64,000 bases of DNA from a bacterium (GCA_016706845.1 JADJIV010000020.1:3671-67670), one strand, 5' to 3'. Positions 8,214-46,593 are shown, counted from the stretch's first letter. The notes: generated by a model not told the origin, from the letters alone. A program made the numbers and translations.

Positions 8214-8375
8214 GGGGACACCTCCGGATGACGGCGAGTGACGCTGCCGCGCATCCTAGCAGCCCGGCCTGCGTATGTCTCCCCCCGAGCGTGCCGTCTT
8301 GACGGCCGGCCGGGGCCCCGGTACCATCCCGCGGGGGTTCCCGCCGCTCGCAGACGCATCCCGACTGGAGGCGAC

Positions 8376-8804
8376 ATGGCCTGGTGGATCTGGATCATCG
8401 TGGGCGCGATCCTGCTCGCCGCGGAGGCGGTCATCACCGCCGACTTCTATCTCGTCTTCTTCGGCCTGGCCGGGCTGCTGGTGGGCCTGCTCGGGGTCTG
8501 CGGCCTCCACCTGCCGGCCTGGACGCAGTGGCTGCTGTTCGCCGTGCTGGCCGTGGCGGGCCTGCTCCTGTACCGCGGACCCCTGAAGCGCAAGCTCGCG
8601 AAGGTCGACCGGGCGATGGGCCCCGAACTGATCGGGGAGACCGCCAGCGCCCAGGCGCCGATCGCGGCGGGCGCGCGCGGGCGCGTCGACCTGCGCGGCA
8701 CGGCCTGGGACGCCCGCAACGACGGCGACACCGACCTGGCCGCCGGCGCCCGTTGCCTGGTCAAGGGAGTGGACGGGCTGACCCTGCTCGTCCGCGCCGA
8801 GTGA
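8376..8804 (+). CDS. NfeD-family membrane protein
   Basis: ATG 8376 after GGAG. MAWWIWIIVGAILLAAE TM helices plus a C-terminal OB-like soluble domain. Located directly upstream of the SPFH gene. Confidence 0.8.
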   Translation: MAWWIWIIVGAILLAAEAVITADFYLVFFGLAGLLVGLLGVCGLHLPAWTQWLLFAVLAVAGLLLYRGPLKRKLAKVDRAMGPELIGETASAQAPIAAGARGRVDLRGTAWDARNDGDTDLAAGARCLVKGVDGLTLLVRAE

Positions 8805-8838
8805 ACCGAACCGCCAACCGCCTTCATCGGAGGACGCC

Positions 8839-9768
8839 ATGGACACCATGATCGCCGCCGTCGTCGTCGTATTCCTGGTGCTGATCGTGATCGCCAGGAC
8901 CGCGATCGTCGTGCCCCAGCAGTCCGCCTACATCGTGGAATACCTGGGCAAGTACCGCAAGACCATCCAGGCGGGCTTCCACATCCTGGTGCCCTTCGTG
9001 GAGAAGGTCGCCTACAAGCACAGCCTCAAGGAGCGGGCCTTCGACATCGCCGAGCAGGTCTGCATCACGCGCGACAACGTGCAGGTCGGCGTCGACGGCG
9101 TGCTGTACCTGAAGGTGCTCGACCCGCAGCGCGCGTCGTACGGCATCTCCGACTTCAACTTCGCCATCACGCAGCTGTCCCAGACCACGCTGCGCAGCGA
9201 GATCGGCAAGATCGACCTGGACCGCACCTTCGAGGAGCGCGCCACGATCAACCAGCAGGTGGTGCAGGAGCTGGACAAGGCGTCCGACCCGTGGGGCGTC
9301 AAGGTGCTGCGCTACGAGATCAAGAACATCAACCCGCCGCGCGACGTGCTCAGCGCCATGGAGAAGCAGATGCGCGCCGAGCGCGAGAAGCGCGCCACGA
9401 TCCTCACCAGCGAGGGCGAGCGCGACGCCCAGATCAACCGGGCCGAGGGCGAGAAGCAGCGGGTCATCAAGGAGTCCGAGGCCAACCAGCAGCAGCAGAT
9501 CAACGAGGCGCAGGGCGAGGCCGCGGCCATCCTGGCCGTCGCCACGGCCACCGCCGAGGGCCTGCGCCAGGTCGCTTCGGCGCTCAGCACCCCGGGCGGC
9601 GACCAGGCCATGCGCCTGCGCGTGGCCGAGCAGTACGTCAACGAGTTCGGGAAGCTGGCCAAGGCGGGCAACACGCTGGTCCTGCCGGCGAACCTCAGCG
9701 ACGTGGGTTCGATGATCGCGCTGGCGACCAACATCGTGAAGGGCGGGTCCGCGGGCGAGGCGCGCTAG
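8839..9768 (+). CDS. SPFH/band-7 (stomatin/paraslipin-like) protein
   Basis: 309-aa ORF with an N-terminal TM helix, an SPFH core (ITRDNVQVGVDGVLYLKV...TLRSEIGKIDLDRTFEER) and a coiled-coil tail. Confidence 0.9.
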   Translation: MDTMIAAVVVVFLVLIVIARTAIVVPQQSAYIVEYLGKYRKTIQAGFHILVPFVEKVAYKHSLKERAFDIAEQVCITRDNVQVGVDGVLYLKVLDPQRASYGISDFNFAITQLSQTTLRSEIGKIDLDRTFEERATINQQVVQELDKASDPWGVKVLRYEIKNINPPRDVLSAMEKQMRAEREKRATILTSEGERDAQINRAEGEKQRVIKESEANQQQQINEAQGEAAAILAVATATAEGLRQVASALSTPGGDQAMRLRVAEQYVNEFGKLAKAGNTLVLPANLSDVGSMIALATNIVKGGSAGEAR

Positions 9769-10718
9769 CGGCGCGTCCAGCGGGGGCGCGGCGGCGCCGG
9801 CGGCCGCCACGAGCGCCAGGGGAGGCGGCGCCCCGTCTCGTTCAGGTGTTCGCCGGCCCAGATCACCAGCGCGCCCAGCATCAGGCCGCCGATGACGTCC
9901 ACCACGTAGTGGTAGCGGCAGTAGACGGTCGCCGAGCAGAGCAGCACGAACAGGGTCGACATCCACCAGCGGTGGCGGGGGAAGAGCCGCCAGACGTGCC
10001 ACCAGGCCACCATCGAGGCGGCGACGTGGCTGCTCGGGAAGGCGGCGCCCAGGATCGCGCCGTTGGCGTGGATGTAGCGCATGATGTCGGTGAAGATCCA
10101 GCCCTCGACCGGGATCGGGCCGGTGCGGAAGTACTTGGGCCCCCAGGCCGGGAAGAACGTGTACAGGGTGTAGCAGAGCAGCATCACGCCGCCGAGGTCG
10201 CGCGCGAAGGCGCGGATCGCGGGCCAGCGCCGGTTGGCGGGCAGGCTCCCGTCGCGCACGATCATCGTCAGCACCAGCGGCGCCAGGGCGTAGTAGCTGA
10301 AGTAGGCCGCCTCCATCAGCTCGTGGAACCAGGGCCAGGGCCAGGCCCGGCTCCAGGCCAGGCTCGGCTGCAGGCCGAAGATCCTCTCCTCCCAGCCGAT
10401 CAGCACCGGGTCGAAGCTGTCGTGGAACCCGTGGAAGACGATGCCCAGGTACTCCATCTCGGCGTAGAACAGCGGGAATCCGAACGGCAGGTAGATCTCG
10501 CCCAGGAAGCGCACCAGGGCCGAGCGCGACATGCGGGCCAGCGGCGGCAGGAACCACACGAAGAGGGCCGCGCCGAGGTGCCAGACCAGCCGCTCGTAGG
10601 GCCGCGCCACCACGTCCGGCCGCAGCAGCGGGTAGAAGCCGCTGACCACCAGGTACACCACGGCCCAGCGGTCCAGCTCGATGCGGAAGAGGGCCAGCGC
10701 CTGCAGTCTACGGCGCAC
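9765..10718 (-). CDS. PAP2-superfamily membrane enzyme resembling sphingomyelin/IPC-synthase head-group transferases
   Basis: 317-aa polytopic ORF. Lipid phosphate phosphatase motifs FPSSHVAAS and YCRYHYVVDVIGG (SGH and HYxxDV type). Confidence 0.7.
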   Translation of the reverse strand: MRRRLQALALFRIELDRWAVVYLVVSGFYPLLRPDVVARPYERLVWHLGAALFVWFLPPLARMSRSALVRFLGEIYLPFGFPLFYAEMEYLGIVFHGFHDSFDPVLIGWEERIFGLQPSLAWSRAWPWPWFHELMEAAYFSYYALAPLVLTMIVRDGSLPANRRWPAIRAFARDLGGVMLLCYTLYTFFPAWGPKYFRTGPIPVEGWIFTDIMRYIHANGAILGAAFPSSHVAASMVAWWHVWRLFPRHRWWMSTLFVLLCSATVYCRYHYVVDVIGGLMLGALVIWAGEHLNETGRRLPWRSWRPPAPPRPRWTRR

Positions 10719-11727
10719 GGAGCCACCCCTCCCGGCGGTAGAATTCCAGGGTCTCGGCGAAGCCGCGCGCCAGGTCGCGCGCGCCCCCGAAGCCCAGCTC
10801 GTCGCGCAGGCGCGAGCCGTCGCAGACCCAGCCCGGCGCCGCGGCGTCGCGCAGGCGGTCGGCGGCCAGCAGCGGCAGCCGCTCGGCGCGCTCCCGGCCG
10901 GCCAGCTTCGCGGCCAGCCGCAGCGCGCCGACCGGCAGGTGCGTGCAGCGGACGCGGCGGCCCCAGGCGGCGCCCAGGGCGGCGGCCAGCGCGGCCGTGT
11001 CGTGGACGGCGCCGTCCTCGACGAACCACGGCCCGCGGGCGCGCTCGTCCTCCAGCAGCAGGACCGCGGCCGCGGCCGCGTCGCGCCCGTCGAGCAGCGA
11101 CAGGGCGCGGACGTTGCCCAGCTGCGCGGTCCAGCCGTGCTTCGCCGCGCGGAACAGTTCCAGGAAGGCCCGGTCGCGCGGACCGTACAGGGCCGGCGGC
11201 CGCAGCGCGCAGGTCCGCAGCGGCCAGTCGCCCGCCAGTTGCTGCTCCGCGGCCAGCTTCGAGCGGCCGTAACCGGTGATCGGGGCGCAGGGGTCGCTCT
11301 CGCGGCGCGGGCGCTCCGGTCCGGCGGGGCCCGACGCGGCCAGGCTCGAGACCAGCACGAAGCTGCGCACGGTGCCGGAGCGCGCGGCCGCCTCCAGCAG
11401 GCGCCGCGTGCTCAGGACGTTGCCGCGGCGGTAGCCGTCCTCGTCGGGGGAGCGCACGACGCCGGCGCAGTGCAGGACGGCGTCGGCGCCGCGCACCAGC
11501 TCGTCCAGGCCGGCGGTGTCGGCGTCGTCGGGCAGCCCGCGCGGCGGCGCGAGCACCGCCGTCACCGTCGCGACGCGCGGGTCGAGCCAGCGGCGGTCGC
11601 TGGTCGGGCGCACCGCGGCGCGCACGGCGTGGCCGCGCGCCAGCAGCAGGTCGGCGATGTGGCTGCCCAGGAAACCCGTGGCGCCGGTCAGCGCCACCAG
11701 ACCGCGCGTGCCGGCGCCGGCGTTCAT
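10708..11727 (-). CDS. NAD(P)-dependent epimerase/dehydratase-fold reductase (CerR-like candidate)
   Basis: Start ATG at 11727 (MNAGAGTRGLVALTGATGFLGSH, GxxGxxG) and YGRSK catalytic motif. ATGA overlap with the upstream gene. The upstream part of the 621-aa six-frame ORF is out-of-frame overlap. Confidence 0.8.
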   Translation of the reverse strand: MNAGAGTRGLVALTGATGFLGSHIADLLLARGHAVRAAVRPTSDRRWLDPRVATVTAVLAPPRGLPDDADTAGLDELVRGADAVLHCAGVVRSPDEDGYRRGNVLSTRRLLEAAARSGTVRSFVLVSSLAASGPAGPERPRRESDPCAPITGYGRSKLAAEQQLAGDWPLRTCALRPPALYGPRDRAFLELFRAAKHGWTAQLGNVRALSLLDGRDAAAAAVLLLEDERARGPWFVEDGAVHDTAALAAALGAAWGRRVRCTHLPVGALRLAAKLAGRERAERLPLLAADRLRDAAAPGWVCDGSRLRDELGFGGARDLARGFAETLEFYRREGWLRAP

Positions 11728-12854
11728 GACAGCGGCAGGTCGTAGATCCGGTAGGTCTTGTACACCTTGGCGCCCAGCTTCTCGAGGATGCGGTTCATGG
11801 CGGTGTTGTTCTCGAGGATCCAGCTGCACTCGCCGGCGGTGATGCCGCCCTTGACCGCGGCCTTGTAGCTGCGCAGGACCATCAGCACGTCCACGCCCTT
11901 GTGGCGGTGCTCGGGCAGCACGCCCATCAGCAGGGTGCGCGCGTACACGATCTTCTTGCGGTCGGCCAGGAAGCGGAAGATCCCGAAGGGGAACAGGCGG
12001 CCGCGGACGCGCTTGAGCGCCAGGTTGAAGTCCGGGACGGTCATGCTGAACCCGATCGGCTCGCCCTTCCACTCGGCGATCAGCAGCAGGTTCTCGTTGA
12101 CCATCGTCTTCATCTCGCGGCCCGCGAAGTAGAATTCGTCGGGGTCCATGGGGATGAAGCCCCAGTTCTCGTGCCAGCAGCGGTTGTAGAGATCGCGGAT
12201 CAGCTCGACCTCGTTGCGGAAGTCCTTCTTGTTGATCGGCCGCACGGTCAGGTCGCTCTCGCCCCGGAAGACCTGCTTCGCGTTCTCCATCACGCGGTCG
12301 GGGAGCTTGAAGCCGTCGGCGGTGATGCGCCAGGCCCACAGGTCGCGGCTCTTGGCCAGGCCGGGGTACGACTCCAGCAGGTCCTGGTACCAGATCGGGT
12401 TGTAGGCCATGCCGGTGACCGGGGACGACGGCTCGCCCGCGATCAGCAGGCCCGGGTTGTCGTGGTTGGTCGTGAAGTTCAGCGGCCCGCGCATGACCGT
12501 CATGCCCTGCCCGCGCAGCCAGTCGCGGGCGGTGTCGAGCAGGGCGTGGGCCGTGGCGCGGTCCTGCTCGCACTCGAAGAAGCCGAAGAAGCCCGTGGTC
12601 TCGCGCCAGTGCTCGTTGTGGTAGCGGTCGACGCAGGCGCCCACGCGCCCGACGACCCGGCCGTCGCGGCGCGCCAGCCAGAGCCGCGTTTCGGCGTGGC
12701 GGAAGAACGGGTTGTGGGCCGGGTCGAGGAATTCGCGCAGCTGTTTCAGCAGCGGGAAGACGTAGTGGGGGTCGTCGGCGTAGACATCGTACGGCAGCTG
12801 CAGGAACGCCTCGAGGTCGCGCTTGCCGGCGACGGGGGTGATCGCGACGCCCAT
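11724..12854 (-). CDS. GNAT-fold acyltransferase-like protein (bacterial ceramide synthase-like candidate)
   Basis: 376-aa ORF with a C-terminal GNAT-like core (LLMGVLPEHRHKGVDVLM...NTAMNRILEKLGA). Lies between the spt-like and reductase genes. Confidence 0.6.
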   Translation of the reverse strand: MGVAITPVAGKRDLEAFLQLPYDVYADDPHYVFPLLKQLREFLDPAHNPFFRHAETRLWLARRDGRVVGRVGACVDRYHNEHWRETTGFFGFFECEQDRATAHALLDTARDWLRGQGMTVMRGPLNFTTNHDNPGLLIAGEPSSPVTGMAYNPIWYQDLLESYPGLAKSRDLWAWRITADGFKLPDRVMENAKQVFRGESDLTVRPINKKDFRNEVELIRDLYNRCWHENWGFIPMDPDEFYFAGREMKTMVNENLLLIAEWKGEPIGFSMTVPDFNLALKRVRGRLFPFGIFRFLADRKKIVYARTLLMGVLPEHRHKGVDVLMVLRSYKAAVKGGITAGECSWILENNTAMNRILEKLGAKVYKTYRIYDLPLS

Positions 12855-12876
12855 GCGGCCTCCTCGGCGGTTCGGT

Positions 12877-14055
12877 TCAGACGACGCCCAGTTCGCGGCC
12901 CACGCGGGTCATGATGTCCATGGCCCGGTGCACCTCGTCCTCGGTGTGGGTGGCCATCAGGCTCAGGCGGATCAGGGCGCCGCCCTTCTCCACGGCGGGG
13001 GAGACCACGGGGTTGACGAAGACGCCCTCCTCGAACAGCCGCCCGCACATCTGGAAGGCCATCAGGTCCTCGCCGATGACCGCCGGGATGATGGGCGTGT
13101 TCGACGGGCCGGTGTCGAAGCCGGCGTCCTGCAGCCGCTCCATCATGACCGCGGTGTTGCGCCACAGCTGCTTGAGGCGCCACTCCTCCTCGATCATGAC
13201 GTCGATCGCGACCGAGACCGAGGCCACCGAGGCCGGCGGCATGCTCGCCGAGAAGATCAGCGAGCGGGCGATGTGCTGGATGAAGTGGATGGTGTCCTTG
13301 TCCGCGGCGATGAAGCCGCCGACCGAGGCCAGGGACTTGCTGAAGGTGCCCATGATCAGGGGCACGCGCTCGGTGACCCCGAAGTGGTTGGCGGTGCCGC
13401 GGCCCTGCGCGCCCAGCACGCCCACGCCGTGGGCGTCGTCGATCATCAGGACGGCGTTATGGCGCTCGGCCAGGTCCAGGATCTCCGGGATCTTCGCGAT
13501 GTCGCCGTGCATGGAGAACACGCCGTCCACGACGATGAGCTTGCCGTCGGTGGTGCAGACGTCCAGCGTGTGCGCCAGCGACGCCATGTCGTTGTGCTTG
13601 TATTTCTTGACCTGCCCGAAGCTCAGGCGGGTGCCGTCGATGATCGAGGCGTGGTCGGTGCGGTCGACGATGACGGTGTCGTTGCGCCCGACCAGGGCGA
13701 AGATCGCGCCGAGGTTGACCATCATGCCCGTCGAGAAGACCAGGGCGGCCTCCTTGCCGACCAGGCGCGCCAGCTTCTCCTCCAGCTCGAGGTGGATGTC
13801 CAGGGTGCCGTTCAGGAACCGCGAGCCGGCGCAGCCGGTGCCGTACTTGTCCAGGGCCAGCTTGGCGGCTTCCTTCACCCGGGGGTGGTTCGTCAGGCCC
13901 AGGTAGTTGTTGCTCCCGAGCATGATGACCTCGCGGCCCCCGATCCGCACCGTGTTCTCCTGGGCCGATTCGATGACCCGGAAGAAGTGGTACAGCCCGG
14001 CGGCCTGCAGTTCCTTGGCCGTGGTGAATTGGGCGACCTTGTCCAGCAGACCCAT
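12877..14055 (-). CDS. spt: alpha-oxoamine synthase, serine palmitoyltransferase-like
   Basis: 392-aa ORF with PLP-lysine motif GTFSKSLASVGG, plus DDAHGVG and GSRFLNGT. The family also includes BioF and Kbl, so substrate assignment rests on context. Confidence 0.75.
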   Translation of the reverse strand: MGLLDKVAQFTTAKELQAAGLYHFFRVIESAQENTVRIGGREVIMLGSNNYLGLTNHPRVKEAAKLALDKYGTGCAGSRFLNGTLDIHLELEEKLARLVGKEAALVFSTGMMVNLGAIFALVGRNDTVIVDRTDHASIIDGTRLSFGQVKKYKHNDMASLAHTLDVCTTDGKLIVVDGVFSMHGDIAKIPEILDLAERHNAVLMIDDAHGVGVLGAQGRGTANHFGVTERVPLIMGTFSKSLASVGGFIAADKDTIHFIQHIARSLIFSASMPPASVASVSVAIDVMIEEEWRLKQLWRNTAVMMERLQDAGFDTGPSNTPIIPAVIGEDLMAFQMCGRLFEEGVFVNPVVSPAVEKGGALIRLSLMATHTEDEVHRAMDIMTRVGRELGVV

Positions 14056-14170
14056 GTTTCCGTGTTCCTTGTTGAACCGTCGGCTGCGAAAATTGAAAGC
14101 CGTTCTCGTTTGCGGGGGCAGTCGGACCAGAACATATACGGGTTCTCAGTCGCATACCAATAAATTTACA

Positions 14171-15859
14171 TCAGGCCGCAGCGGCCCCCTGCCCTGCGCG
14201 AGCCGGTTTCCCGCTCCTGCTCAGCAGCCACCGCGCCTCCCAGGCCAGGAACAGGGCCATGGCGATCAGTCCGGCGGCGATGCCCGCCAGCAGTCCCTCC
14301 CCGTCGCGCAGGAAACCCGCGATCTGCCAACCGAGGGCCCCGATCGTCGTCGCCAGCATGAACAGCGCGGGCACCAGGGTGGCCGCCCGGGGCTTGTGCA
14401 GCCCGACCAGCCAGCTCGAAACGACCAGCAGGCTGAGCGCCGCCACCAGCTGGTTCGACGCGCCGAAGACCGGCCAGATCCGGTGGTAGCTGTCGCTGGC
14501 GCCGAGCCAGCCGGCCGCCAGCACCGTGATCAGGGTGGCGCCCCAGCGGGTGCCGACGACCGGGGCGCCGCGCACCAGCTCCTGCAGGACGAAGCGGGCC
14601 AGGCGGGTCGAGGTGTCCAGGGTGGTGATCACGAAGGCGTTGATCATCAGGATGCCGAAGAACAGACCGACCGACGCGCCCAGCAGGGGCAGGGCGTCGG
14701 TCAGCCGGGAGAAGCCCGTAGCGAAGGCGACGATGGGGCCGCCGCCCGCCGGGTCCATCAGCTGCTGCAGGCTGCCGGCGACGGGCGAGGCGCCGGCGTC
14801 CCAGCGCAGGGCGCCCGCCGCGATCAGCACCACCAGCGCCGCCAGCCCCGCCTCCAGGATCATGGCGCCGAACCCGATGCGCAGGCCGTCGCTCTCGCGG
14901 GAGATCTGCTTGCTGGTGGTGCCGCCGGCGACCAGGGAGTGGAACCCCGAGATGGCGCCGCAGGCGATCATCACGCACAGCATGGGCCACAGGGGTCCCT
15001 GGGTCGGCGACCGGAAACCCGTGAAGGCCGGCGCCTCCAGCGTGGGGTGCAGTGCGATCAGGCCCAGCACCCCGCCGCCGATGCCCAGGTAGAGGATCCA
15101 GGTGCTCAGGTAGTCGCGCGGCTGCAGGAGCAGCCAGACCGGCAGCGTCGAGGCCAGCACGCAGTAGACCATCAGGATCCAGAACCAGAACGTGACGGCC
15201 GGGATCCCGAACACCTCCGGCGGCAGCACCACCGGCAACCGGACCCCCAGCCAGACCAGGCCGGCCAGCGCGGCCAGGGCCAGCAGCGTGAAGGGCAGCA
15301 GCGGCCGTCCCGGCCGCAGCACGCCCGCCCCGAACACCGACGCCACCGCGATCAGGCCGAAGGTGGGGATCACGATGCTCGGTTCCTTGACCATGGTCTG
15401 GGCGGTGATCACGCCGAAGACCGCGACCACCATCACCAGGGTGCACCACAGGAAGACCGAGAGGATCAGACGCGCGCGGCCGCCCAGCGTGGACTGCGCG
15501 ATCTCGCCGATCGAGACGCCGCCGCTGCGCACCGACGCCATCAGCGCCACGTAGTCGTGGACCGCGCCCATCAGGACCGAGCCAAGGGCGATCCAGCCCA
15601 GCGCCGCCGCCCAGCCGAAGTAGAGCACGCCGAGCAGCGGGCCCACGATCGGACCGGCGCCGGCGATCGAGGAGAAGTGGTGGCCGAACAGGACGGGGGT
15701 GCGCGTCGCCTGGAAGTCCACGCCGTCGGCCCGGCTGCGGCTCGGGACGGCGCGCGCGTCGTCGGGTCCGATCAGGCGGCGGGCGATCCTGCCGCCGTAC
15801 CACCGGTAGCCGACCACGAGCCAGGCGGCGACCAGGCCGCCGATCCACAAGCTGTTCAT
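14171..15859 (-). CDS. cstA: carbon starvation protein A family peptide/pyruvate transporter
   Basis: 562-aa polytopic ORF with the CstA N-terminal signature LFGHHFSSIAGAGPIVGP. Confidence 0.9.
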   Translation of the reverse strand: MNSLWIGGLVAAWLVVGYRWYGGRIARRLIGPDDARAVPSRSRADGVDFQATRTPVLFGHHFSSIAGAGPIVGPLLGVLYFGWAAALGWIALGSVLMGAVHDYVALMASVRSGGVSIGEIAQSTLGGRARLILSVFLWCTLVMVVAVFGVITAQTMVKEPSIVIPTFGLIAVASVFGAGVLRPGRPLLPFTLLALAALAGLVWLGVRLPVVLPPEVFGIPAVTFWFWILMVYCVLASTLPVWLLLQPRDYLSTWILYLGIGGGVLGLIALHPTLEAPAFTGFRSPTQGPLWPMLCVMIACGAISGFHSLVAGGTTSKQISRESDGLRIGFGAMILEAGLAALVVLIAAGALRWDAGASPVAGSLQQLMDPAGGGPIVAFATGFSRLTDALPLLGASVGLFFGILMINAFVITTLDTSTRLARFVLQELVRGAPVVGTRWGATLITVLAAGWLGASDSYHRIWPVFGASNQLVAALSLLVVSSWLVGLHKPRAATLVPALFMLATTIGALGWQIAGFLRDGEGLLAGIAAGLIAMALFLAWEARWLLSRSGKPARAGQGAAAA

Positions 15860-43153: not shown

Positions 43154-44198
43154 ATGCTGGACCTGCGCAGCGACACCGTGACCCGTCCGGACGCCGCGAT
43201 GCGCCGGGCGATCGCCGAGGCCGAGGTCGGGGACGACGTCTTCGGCGACGACCCGACCGTCAACCGCCTCCAGGAGCGCACCGCCGAACTGCTGGGCAAG
43301 GAAGCGGCCCTGTTCGTGCCCAGCGGCACCATGGCCAACCAGATCGCGCTGCGCGTCCAGACCCGCCCCGGCGACCAGGGTGGTCTGCGAGGCCGACTGC
43401 CACATCTACCGCTACGAGCAGGGCGGGCCGGCCGCCCTCTCCGGCCTGCTGCTGGCCTGCGTGCCCGGCGACCGCGGCGCGCTCCCCTGGTCCGCCATCC
43501 AGCCGGCCCTGAACCCCGACGACGACCACGCCGCCCGCCCGGCCCTGATCTGCCTGGAGAACACGCACAACCGGGCCGGCGGGCGCATCCTGCCGCAGGC
43601 GCAGGTGGTCGAGGTCGGGCGCGAAGCCCACGCCCGCGGCCTGCGGTTGCACCTGGACGGGGCGCGGCTGTGGAACGTCCACGCCGCGACCGGCGCCGCC
43701 CTGGCGGAACTGGCCGCGCCGGCCGACACCGTCAGCGTCTGCTTCTCCAAGGGGCTCGGGGCGCCGGTGGGCTCGGCCCTGGCCGGGGACGCCGCCCTGA
43801 TCCGCGAAGCCCGGCGCGCCCGCAAGCTCTACGGCGGCGGCATGCGTCAGGTGGGGATCCTGGCCGCGGCCTGCCTGCACGCCCTGGACCACAACCTGGC
43901 GCGCCTGGGCCAGGATCACGTACACGCCCGCCTGCTGGTCGAAGGTCTGGACAACCCGGCCCTCAGGCTCGATCATCCCGTCGAGACCAACATCGTTATC
44001 CTGCGGGTCGCCGACGAGCGGCGCCTGCTCGAACACCTGTGCGGGAGCGGCATCCTGGCCGTGGCGTTCGGATCCGGACGCGTGCGTCTGGTGCCGAACC
44101 TCATGATCGACCGCGAGGGCATCCTGGCGGTGCGGGCCGCGCTGGACGCCTACCGCGCGCCCGCGCCCGCGAACCAGACACGAGGGGATGCGAGTTGA
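43154..44198 (+). CDS. ltaE: low-specificity L-threonine aldolase (frame change at GGG 43378-43380)
   Basis: [12 protein letters not shown]…VPSGTMANQ in one frame, continuing [16 protein letters not shown]…[12 protein letters not shown] in the next. Confidence 0.8.
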
Positions 44199-45016
44199 CG
44201 ACACCGGCGGACTGGGACTGGCTGATTCCCCCGACGCACGCCGAGCGCGAGACCGTCGCGTTCCTGCGCGCCACCGTCGCGGCGTCCGGCGCGCAGGGTG
44301 TCGTGATCGGGCTCTCGGGGGGCATCGACTCGGCCGTCAGCGCCGCCCTGGCGGTGCGCGCCCTGGGCGCCGGGGCCGTGCTCGGCGTCTACCTGCCTTA
44401 CCGCACCAGCAGTCCGGACTCGCTGGCCGACGCCGAGCTGGTGGCCGCCGCGCTGGGCATCCGTTCCGAACGGCACGACATCAGCGACCTCGCCGACGCC
44501 TACCTGCGCGACGTCCCGCCCGAGGCCGGCCTGCGCCGCGGGAACGTGATGGCGCGCTGCCGCATGATCGTGCTGTACGACCTCTCGGCGCGCGACCGCA
44601 CGCTGGTGCTGGGCACCGGCAACCGCACCGAGACCCTGCTGGGCTACGCGACCCTGCACGGGGATGCGGCCTTCGGGCTGAATCCCCTGGGCGATCTCTA
44701 CAAGGCCGAGGTGCGCGCCCTGGCGCGCCACCTGGGCCTGCCGGCGCGGGTCATCGAGAAGGCGCCGAGCGCCGACCTGTGGGCGGGACAGACCGACGAG
44801 GACGAGCTGGGCTTCACCTACGAGCAGGCCGATCTCCTGCTGCACCACATGGTGGACCTGGAACTGGACGACGGCCGGCTCGCGTCCCTCGGCTTCGCGC
44901 CGGAACTGGTCGCCACGGTCCGCGACCGCGTCCGGGCGCAGGCCTTCAAGTGGCTGCCGGTGCCGTCCGCGACCTTCCCGGGACGCCCCCTGCCGGACAT
45001 CGCAGGCGGCTTCTGA
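44195..45016 (+). CDS. nadE: NH3-dependent NAD+ synthetase
   Basis: TTG start in a TTGA overlap. PP-loop [10 protein letters not shown]. Confidence 0.85.
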
Positions 45017-45762: not shown

Positions 45763-46593
45763 ATGGACAGGATCGGACTGAAGACGATGGCCCGCGACAA
45801 GGTCAAGCCGCTGGTGCTCGCCCTGGACCGCGCCGGCGTGTCGCCCGACGGCGTGTCGCTCGCCGGGCTGGGGATCAGCGTCTTCGCCGCCTGGATCACG
45901 GCCGCGGGGCAGCTGTTCCTCGGCGCCCTGGTGCTGATCGTCGGTTCGGTGTTCGACATGCTGGACGGCGATCTGGCGCGCCTGCAGGGGCGGGCCAGCA
46001 AGCGCGGCGCCTTCCTCGATTCCAACTTCGACCGCCTGTCCGAGGCGGCGGTCTACGCGGGGCTGGCCTGGTTCTACATGGAAGCCCTGTCGTGGCCGGA
46101 TTCCGGTGCGGTGCTGCTGGTGATCCTGGCGCTGACCGGCTCGCTGACCACCAGCTACGCGCGCGCGCGGGCCGAGGGCCTGGGCGTCGCCTGCACGGGC
46201 GGCTGGCTGCAGCGCCCCGAGCGCATGGTCCTTTTGATCCTCGGCATGATCCTGGGCCGTCACGTCTTGAAGCTGGTGCTGGCGCTGCTGGCGGCCGCGA
46301 CCCTCTTCACCACGCTGCAGAGGATCGCGGCGGTCAGCCGCGACCTGGGGGACGAGCCGCGCCCGGAGCGGCGGCGGCCGCCGCGCGCGGTCCCCGCCGA
46401 CCCGTCGTCCATCGACACGGCGCCCGCCGGGGCGCGGGACGCGCGGGAACCCTCCCGCCCCGGACCCGCGCACGACGCCGCGCCGGCTCCCGCGGCGCCG
46501 GTCGCCGACGGTCCCGCCCCCGACGGCGAGGTCCGTCTCGAGCCCGACGACGACGACGACGACCCCTACGCGGATCTCCACCGCCGTGTCTGA
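45763..46593 (+). CDS. CDP-alcohol phosphatidyltransferase family protein
   Basis: Motif DMLDGDLARLQGRASKRGAFLDSNFDRLSE (DGx2ARx8Gx3Dx3D). Acidic, Pro-rich C-terminal tail. Confidence 0.8.
   Translation: MDRIGLKTMARDKVKPLVLALDRAGVSPDGVSLAGLGISVFAAWITAAGQLFLGALVLIVGSVFDMLDGDLARLQGRASKRGAFLDSNFDRLSEAAVYAGLAWFYMEALSWPDSGAVLLVILALTGSLTTSYARARAEGLGVACTGGWLQRPERMVLLILGMILGRHVLKLVLALLAAATLFTTLQRIAAVSRDLGDEPRPERRRPPRAVPADPSSIDTAPAGARDAREPSRPGPAHDAAPAPAAPVADGPAPDGEVRLEPDDDDDDPYADLHRRV

Follow-up and report, generated by a model that had tools for sequence, protein, structure and literature searches.

A compact four-gene operon of a Krumholzibacteriota bacterium that is likely to direct the synthesis of a phosphosphingolipid

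The stretch of bacterial DNA analyzed here (64,000 nucleotides (nt), JADJIV010000020.1:3671-67670 of assembly GCA_016706845.1; 'the window') has a G+C content of ~71% and is located on contig 20 of a genome of 3.37 Mb that is assembled in 51 contigs and estimated to be 84% complete. Four consecutive genes on its minus strand (Table 1) encode a member of the alpha-oxoamine synthase (AOS) family, an acyltransferase of the GNAT family, an extended short-chain dehydrogenase/reductase (SDR), and a polytopic membrane protein of the PAP2_3 family. We consider it quite likely that these genes constitute an operon for the synthesis of a phosphosphingolipid; in this genome, the likely donor of the head group would be phosphatidylinositol (PI), and the product would be inositol phosphoceramide (IPC). 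Closely homologous GNAT and PAP2 proteins carry the source labels Candidatus Krumholzibacteria or Krumholzibacteriia, and a single class holds all of the genomes (121) that we sampled from the host's phylum.

Table 1. Positions of the four genes of the candidate sphingolipid operon and of associated features, counted from the first nucleotide of the window. Abbreviations: aa, amino acids; PLP, pyridoxal phosphate.
Feature	Position	Strand	Remarks
spt: serine palmitoyltransferase, CFB/Sphingobacterium type	12877-14055	-	392 aa; PLP lysine in GTFSKS
bcerS: tandem-GNAT N-acyltransferase, orthologue of CC_1154/CCNA_01212	11724-12854	-	376 aa
cerR: extended-SDR (epimerase-fold) reductase, orthologue of CC_1164/CCNA_01222	10708-11727	-	339 aa; GATGFLG, YGRSK
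PAP2_3 polytopic membrane protein, candidate Aur1/SMS-like ceramide phospho-head-group transferase	9765-10718	-	317 aa; GTG start
Intergenic region between cstA stop and spt start	14056-14170	-	115 nt; locally A+T-richer
Phosphatidylinositol-phosphate-synthase-like gene	45763-46593	+	possible PI donor supply; putative link to the operon

A preliminary description of this locus, made from the sequence alone, had reported four consecutive minus-strand genes with two overlapping junctions, and the open reading frames (ORFs) and junctions that we read from the sequence bear this out. The spt and GNAT genes are separated by a gap of 22 nt that contains GAGGAGG, the GNAT and SDR genes overlap by 4 nt (ATGA), and the SDR and PAP2 genes overlap by 11 nt. 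The true start of cerR is the ATG at 11727, inside this ATGA; the 621-aa ORF that appears in a mechanical listing is an upstream extension of the gene. The motifs quoted for the synthase (GTFSKS) and for the SDR (GATGFLG and YGRSK) are all present, and both Pfam and NCBIfam agree with the folds that had been assigned to the four proteins (Aminotran_1_2; Acetyltransf_1, for the C-terminal half only; Epimerase; and PAP2_3/PAP2/PAP2_C). Two motifs had been quoted for the PAP2 protein; the one of HYxxDV type is present (as HYVVDV), and the other, SGH, is not, because the C2 motif reads PSSH.

Gene 1 is, as judged by its sequence, a serine palmitoyltransferase (Spt). The best NCBIfam model is that for the CFB-type Spt (NF047600, 575.1 bits; the next family scores 413 bits); the models for Kbl, BioF, ALAS, and the alpha- and beta-proteobacterial Spts all score below it (e.g., 297 bits for NF047603, the alphaproteobacterial type). 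Aminotran_1_2 spans residues 42-380, that is, a full-length AOS fold, and the best match in the PDB is the Spt from Sphingobacterium multivorum (3a2b; 447 bits, compared with 311 bits for the BioF/Kbl from Thermus), with 54% identity across 385 residues and the GTFSKS motif aligned with the same motif in that enzyme. The preliminary description had suggested comparing the synthase with Spt, BioF, Kbl, and HemA in a phylogeny; in a maximum likelihood tree the synthase is located in the Spt clade, and the grouping with BioF or Kbl that would have spoken against an Spt was not seen. This clade (100/100 support) holds the window protein, 3a2b, and the Caulobacter Spt; within it, 12 orthologues from the same phylum join the window protein in a subclade of their own (99/97). 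BioF and Kbl from E. coli, BioF/Kbl from Thermus, and two ALAS-like proteins from Caulobacter fall outside the clade, and the three other AOS paralogues encoded by the genome group with Kbl. We therefore reject a BioF/Kbl identity for the synthase because the genome's Kbl-like paralogues lie elsewhere and are separated from it in the tree. A sulfonolipid synthase is likewise rejected, because the cysteate acyltransferase in the PDB scores 226 bits vs 447 bits for Spt. As a separate observation, one of the Kbl-like AOS paralogues (contig 6:9872-10941, minus strand) is split into two adjoining pieces in different frames, the result of either a frameshift or an assembly error.

Genes 2 and 3 were compared with the enzymes of Caulobacter. 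Three Caulobacter genomes were reached by a CtrA scan of contigs and then searched with the window proteins; their cerS and cerR genes were identified by position in the sphingolipid locus, which was matched to the published gene order (CC_1165 aasR, CC_1164 cerR, CC_1163 acpR, CC_1162 spt, CC_1156/1155 lptF2/G2, and CC_1154 cerS; PMC11324152; bioRxiv 10.64898/2026.04.12.717747). The locus in Caulobacter sp. AP07 (AMP-binding, SDR, acyl carrier protein (ACP), Spt, ..., LptF-like, LptG-like, GNAT) agrees with this order. Each of the three genomes contains exactly one strong, full-length match to the window GNAT (E 3e-60 to 4e-72, 34-39% identity), located at the cerS position after lptF2/lptG2; in the reverse search of the window's genome, the Caulobacter GNAT finds the window gene only (E 8e-63). 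In a pairwise BLASTP, the window GNAT and the Caulobacter bCerS align end to end with 34% identity (E 6e-71). For the SDR, the best match in all three genomes is the SDR in the aasR-cerR-acpR-spt block (full length, E 1e-17 to 1e-20), with the next Caulobacter SDRs matching at 8e-11 or weaker, and the reverse search with the Caulobacter CerR finds the window SDR only; the pairwise BLASTP alignment is again end to end (30% identity, E 6e-20). The Caulobacter Spt, too, has the window Spt as its best match in this genome. Thus, the comparisons of the GNAT with bCerS and of the SDR with CerR (E ~1e-20) that had been proposed for this locus both return full-length reciprocal best matches, and the proposed correspondence to the enzyme families of the Caulobacter ceramide route is supported by these two orthologues with best matches in both directions.

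These comparisons support the assignment of genes 2 and 3 as orthologues of the genetically defined Caulobacter bCerS and CerR. For both the GNAT and the SDR there is no NCBIfam family model and no solved structure, and a direct sequence search of the PDB with the GNAT gave nothing useful. The AlphaFold2 model of the GNAT (pLDDT 89.9) is a tandem GNAT that resembles glucosamine N-acetyltransferase and mycothiol synthase, both amine N-acyltransferases; the predicted function is the N-acylation of a long-chain base (LCB) with a long acyl chain. The SDR matches the Pfam Epimerase family with 92 bits; its GATGFLG sequence, which corresponds to the cofactor motif TGxxGxxG of extended SDRs, occupies residues 15-21, and YGRSK corresponds to their catalytic motif YxxxK. 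In one of the organisms searched, Caulobacter sp. KR2-114, the CerR orthologue (C4:6211-7137) was read through one in-frame TAG, so it may be a pseudogene or contain a sequencing error.

The genes also remain together in other genomes. The same four-gene order, with the upstream Memo, AMMECR1, and CstA genes, recurs in relatives with GNATs that are 51-66% identical to that in the window. The GNAT family is large (1,344 clusters at 50% identity with E<1e-30); in the loci of three members that are 35-41% identical to the window protein, a gene for an AOS adjoins the GNAT gene (3/3) and a gene for an epimerase-type SDR is nearby (2/3), and none of these three distant loci contains a PAP2 gene. 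Because the distant loci keep the AOS and SDR genes without PAP2, genome context identifies the Spt-bCerS-CerR triad as the core of the system and the PAP2_3 gene as an accessory in some lineages. Another metagenomic lineage encodes a natural Spt-GNAT fusion (P0148, 780 aa); in its locus (L136:5003-9258) the gene for the fusion is flanked by an upstream gene for an epimerase-type SDR and a downstream PAP2_3 gene, the product of which is 26% identical to that in the window.

Within the phylum, we counted as Spt-type any gene product that scores at least 499 bits as well as copies cut off at a contig end. By this definition 52 of the 121 genomes contain an Spt-type gene, and exactly the same 52 contain a PAP2 homologue, at adjacent coordinates. 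The GNAT is found in 51 of the 52; in the exception, the spt gene is at a contig end. The match between Spt and PAP2 extends to two other families of the phylum, in which the PAP2 proteins are 29-38% identical to that in the window and their genes are 2-3 kb from spt. Because these genomes share ancestry, they represent a handful of lineages and cannot be counted as 52 independent events. The arrangement is not explained by chance because the order is kept in diverged relatives and the co-occurrence of Spt and PAP2 is complete (52/52). This phyletic co-occurrence is the strongest functional evidence on the PAP2 gene. From the distribution of the genes, production of sphingolipids is likely in one family-level lineage of this uncultured phylum and in a few genomes from two other families.

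The PAP2 protein matches the Pfam families PAP2_3 (55 bits) and PAP2_C (26.8 bits, threshold 27), and its own family is tightly kept: the best 120 matches are all at least 59% identical. In an alignment of 18 family members, P228-S-S-H231, R268, H270, and D274 (the latter three in RYHYVVDV) are invariant, and K195 is the sole invariant lysine. A direct sequence search of the PDB gave nothing useful; the profile and fold searches were informative. The AlphaFold2 model (pLDDT 80.9, pTM 0.80) was compared with known structures using Foldseek, and the matches are, in order, Aur1 with ceramide (9vj4, TM 0.51/0.57), Aur1-Kei1 (9ivc), human SMSr (8ijq), and PgpB from B. subtilis. The best PDB match of the family profile is AUR1 (E 1.2e-4), with AFPSSH...YCRYHYVVDV in the window protein aligned with AFPSLH...YLTHHYFVDL in Aur1; PgpB is third, and the E value for the phosphatase is 4.6e-4. 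Both rankings favor ceramide phosphotransferases of the Aur1/SMSr type over phosphatases, although by small margins (fold E 0.035-0.11 vs 0.33; profile E 1.2e-4 vs 4.6e-4), in line with the earlier proposal that a head-group transferase has been added to the ceramide route; its predicted fold and its sequence both suggest that the PAP2_3 enzyme probably adds a phosphate-linked head group to ceramide. No PAP2 homologue was found in the three Caulobacter genomes that were searched.

In the pathway that we propose, Spt would join L-serine and a long-chain acyl thioester to form 3-ketosphinganine, the reaction expected from homology to its enzyme family. Since a dedicated ACP and acyl-ACP synthetase are lacking, this thioester is probably acyl-CoA, which is also the substrate of the Sphingobacterium enzyme. 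In the second and third steps, bCerS would N-acylate the long-chain base and CerR would reduce the 3-keto group, yielding dihydroceramide; the order of N-acylation and reduction is disputed in the literature. In the last step, modelled on Aur1, BT_1522, and SMS/SMSr, the His-His-Asp triad of the PAP2_3 protein would move a phospho-alcohol from a glycerophospholipid to the C1 hydroxyl group of ceramide and free diacylglycerol. The preliminary description was correct that the cluster has no gene for an ACP or an acyl-ACP synthetase; in the genome as a whole, tblastn with the Caulobacter AcpR gives no match, and the Caulobacter AasR finds weak, generic AMP-binding matches only. This absence fits an Spt of the CFB type because it is for the alpha-, beta-, and gamma-Proteobacteria that spt has been reported to occur together with genes for an ACP and an acyl-ACP synthetase (PMC9386255).

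The candidate donors were considered from the gene content of the genome. A full-length MIPS (325 bits) and CdsA are encoded (contig 12:77527-78747 and contig 43:2705-3091), and the single match to PF01066 in the genome, that is, the only CDP-alcohol phosphatidyltransferase found, is the phosphatidylinositol-phosphate-synthase (PIPS)-like protein encoded in the window. The best-scoring models for this protein are those of PIP synthases, with NF045883 (PIPSynth, 140.9 bits with a cut-off of 170) first, followed by archaetidylinositol-phosphate synthase (139 bits) and the BT_1523-type (98.7 bits). Searches of this genome (84% complete) detected no Psd (by Pfam and tblastn), PgsA, or PssA. Because MIPS and CdsA are present, the sole CDP-alcohol transferase is PIPS-like, and no Psd, PgsA, or PssA was found, we favor PI as the donor, which would make IPC the most likely product in this genome. 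No inositol-lipid cluster surrounds the MIPS gene, the neighbors of which encode a metallo-beta-lactamase-fold protein, DegT, and sugar transferases. The lineage may have phosphatidylinositol as one of its major lipids.

The same pathway could end in a head group other than inositol, with phosphatidylethanolamine (PE) or phosphatidylglycerol (PG) as the donor and ceramide phosphoethanolamine (CPE) or ceramide phosphoglycerol as the product. The HYVVDV sequence of the PAP2 protein resembles the HYTxDV motif of the SMS family; one of the three best fold matches is to the CPE synthase SMSr, the score for PAP2_C (the C-terminal domain of SMS) is nearly at its threshold, orthology to BT_1522 is not supported (22.9 vs 480 bits), and Bacteroides fragilis has CPE as one of its prominent sphingolipids (PMC12132519). 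However, the enzymes that would point to PE or PG are those not found in this genome, its sole CDP-alcohol transferase is PIPS-like, and both the fold and the profile search place Aur1 ahead of SMSr, so we regard a non-inositol head group as rather unlikely.

A phosphatase is a less probable identity for the PAP2 protein. In this case the enzyme would be a lipid phosphate phosphatase acting on ceramide-1-phosphate, LCB phosphate, or a phosphorylated head-group intermediate, and it would trim or recycle sphingolipids instead of completing them. The protein is a member of the PAP2 superfamily, in which the His-His-Asp triad is common to phosphatases and transferases; PgpB from B. subtilis is the fourth fold match and the third profile match. 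The C1 motif of PAP2 phosphatases (KxxxxxxRP) helps to bind phosphate, and this motif is missing in all 18 of the aligned family members. In addition, ceramide phosphotransferases rank above phosphatases in both searches, and the operon, the extent of the search that was made, contains no gene for a ceramide or LCB kinase. We judge this function to be improbable.

Use of alanine, glycine, or cysteate by the synthase, which would lead to a 1-deoxy-sphingolipid, a sulfonolipid, or another N-acyl amino-lipid, is very improbable: abundant bacterial 1-deoxyceramides have been reported (PMC11334938) and the Spt score is under the equivalog cut-off, but the synthase shares more than half of its residues with a characterized Spt, the cysteate acyltransferase is a much poorer match, and attachment of a head group by the PAP2 protein would need the C1 hydroxyl group.

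Several observations weigh against the assignment of the operon to phosphosphingolipid synthesis with PI as the donor. For the PAP2 protein, the best Foldseek match has an E value of 0.035 and a TM-score of ~0.5, and the sequence likeness to AUR1 and BT_1522 is limited to a motif region of ~75 residues; the equivalog model for BT_1522 (NF052609) gives 22.9 bits, in the motif region only, vs a cut-off of 480 bits. Because the likeness is so short and the score so far below the cut-off, we place the protein in a separate subfamily, which would at best share the function of the BT_1522 family. The Spt score (575 bits) is under the curated cut-off of NF047600 (640 bits), a value that no genome of the phylum reaches; because this model was evidently built on Bacteroidota, we consider the score a near miss and not a sign of another family. 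The likeness to CerR is modest (30-35% identity) and lies within the very large SDR family. Finally, the choice of donor leans on absences in a genome from which ~16% is missing, and MIPS is found in 115 of the 121 genomes of the phylum regardless of the cluster; since it is near-universal with or without the cluster, MIPS gives no specific support. We regard a four-gene operon for a phosphosphingolipid, with IPC as the favored product, as the most likely reading of the locus.

The surroundings of the operon were also examined. Upstream of spt, across the intergenic region listed in Table 1, is cstA (14171-15859); from its position this 115-nt region probably contains the promoter and 5' untranslated region of the operon. 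A scan with the sigma-70 consensus found no site in this region, and a scan for promoters and terminators found nothing relevant around the operon. On the other side, an NfeD-SPFH (Band 7/stomatin-like) gene pair (8238-9768, plus strand) converges on the operon, and its end overlaps that of the PAP2 gene by 4 nt. The proximity of a membrane-microdomain scaffold (SPFH) to sphingolipid genes is a suggestive pairing; however, the pair is not kept beside the cluster in the relatives examined (L006-L010), so we left it out of the system. Elsewhere in the window, a 620-aa ORF (43154-45016, plus strand) has an N-terminal piece of 75 residues that resembles threonine aldolase (Beta_elim_lyase) and, at residues 364-602, a complete NAD synthase domain; either the ORF has been extended too far, or the remnant of a gene has become fused to it in frame. 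Between 22001 and 24000, the G+C content reaches 84% with a strong AT-skew anomaly; the region coincides with a homopolymer C/G tract and is probably an assembly artefact.

The Spt-bCerS-CerR route has been genetically defined in Caulobacter, according to citations in PMC11087976 and PMC11324152. The window locus and that in Caulobacter crescentus (Spt CC_1162/CCNA_01220, bCerS CC_1154, and CerR CC_1164) share the same three enzyme families, clustered with spt; in contrast to Caulobacter, the window locus is without AcpR, AasR, and LptF2/G2 paralogues, its Spt is of the CFB type and not alphaproteobacterial, and the genes form one compact operon that includes a PAP2_3 gene. The cpg genes for ceramide phosphoglycerate in Caulobacter also have no counterpart in the window operon, the only place where they were sought. 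The Spt from Sphingobacterium multivorum (3a2b, 8guh) resembles the window Spt in sequence (54% identity), in the PLP-lysine motif, and in belonging to the same clade, but the window Spt is from a different phylum and is located in a Krumholzibacteriota subclade.

For the PAP2 protein, the precedents are the yeast IPC synthase Aur1 (9vj3, 9vj4, 9ivc) and its homologue BT_1522, which acts in Bacteroides thetaiotaomicron as the PI-dihydroceramide synthase (PMC9246714). The window protein shares with them a polytopic PAP2_3-type fold, aligned C2 and C3 motifs, and a gene linked to ceramide synthesis; unlike BT_1522, its gene is located inside the spt-bcerS-cerR operon and not in an inositol-lipid cluster. 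The SMSr family also uses a His-His-Asp catalytic triad, and the human sphingomyelin synthase-related protein SMSr (8ijq) is the third-best fold match, but its TM-score is 0.32-0.37 and its sequence gives no significant match to the window protein. SMSr moves phosphoethanolamine from PE to ceramide to form CPE (PMC7988496); in our search of the literature, we found no gene assigned to the synthesis of CPE or PG-ceramide in bacteria.

The preliminary description had called sphingolipid synthesis notable in this lineage. Our search found no paper that joins Krumholzibacteriota and sphingolipids, but the claim is overstated: homologues of Spt-like, bCerS, and CerR proteins were inferred first in 9 and later in ~40 bacterial phyla (PMC11334938). 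The core pathway is, then, already known and widely predicted in bacteria; the head-group enzyme is a moderately interesting lead, as a candidate for a family of ceramide phosphotransferases.

In bacteria, sphingolipids influence the outer membrane and the way in which cells interact with their hosts, and genes for head-group attachment are known in few cases, that is, the cpg genes in Caulobacter and BT_1522 in Bacteroides. The compact four-gene cassette could be expressed directly, and the assignment of the genes to a lineage aids the interpretation of environmental lipid surveys. Tentatively, and with less confidence than we place in the operon itself, the PAP2_3 subfamily might be a second, independent family of bacterial IPC synthases that is distinct from BT_1522, in a Krumholzibacteriota family in which PI would be the main or only phospholipid derived from CDP-diacylglycerol and the membrane would be based on the pair of PI and IPC. 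If so, the lineage would have an inositol-lipid economy that is otherwise typical of fungi and plants.

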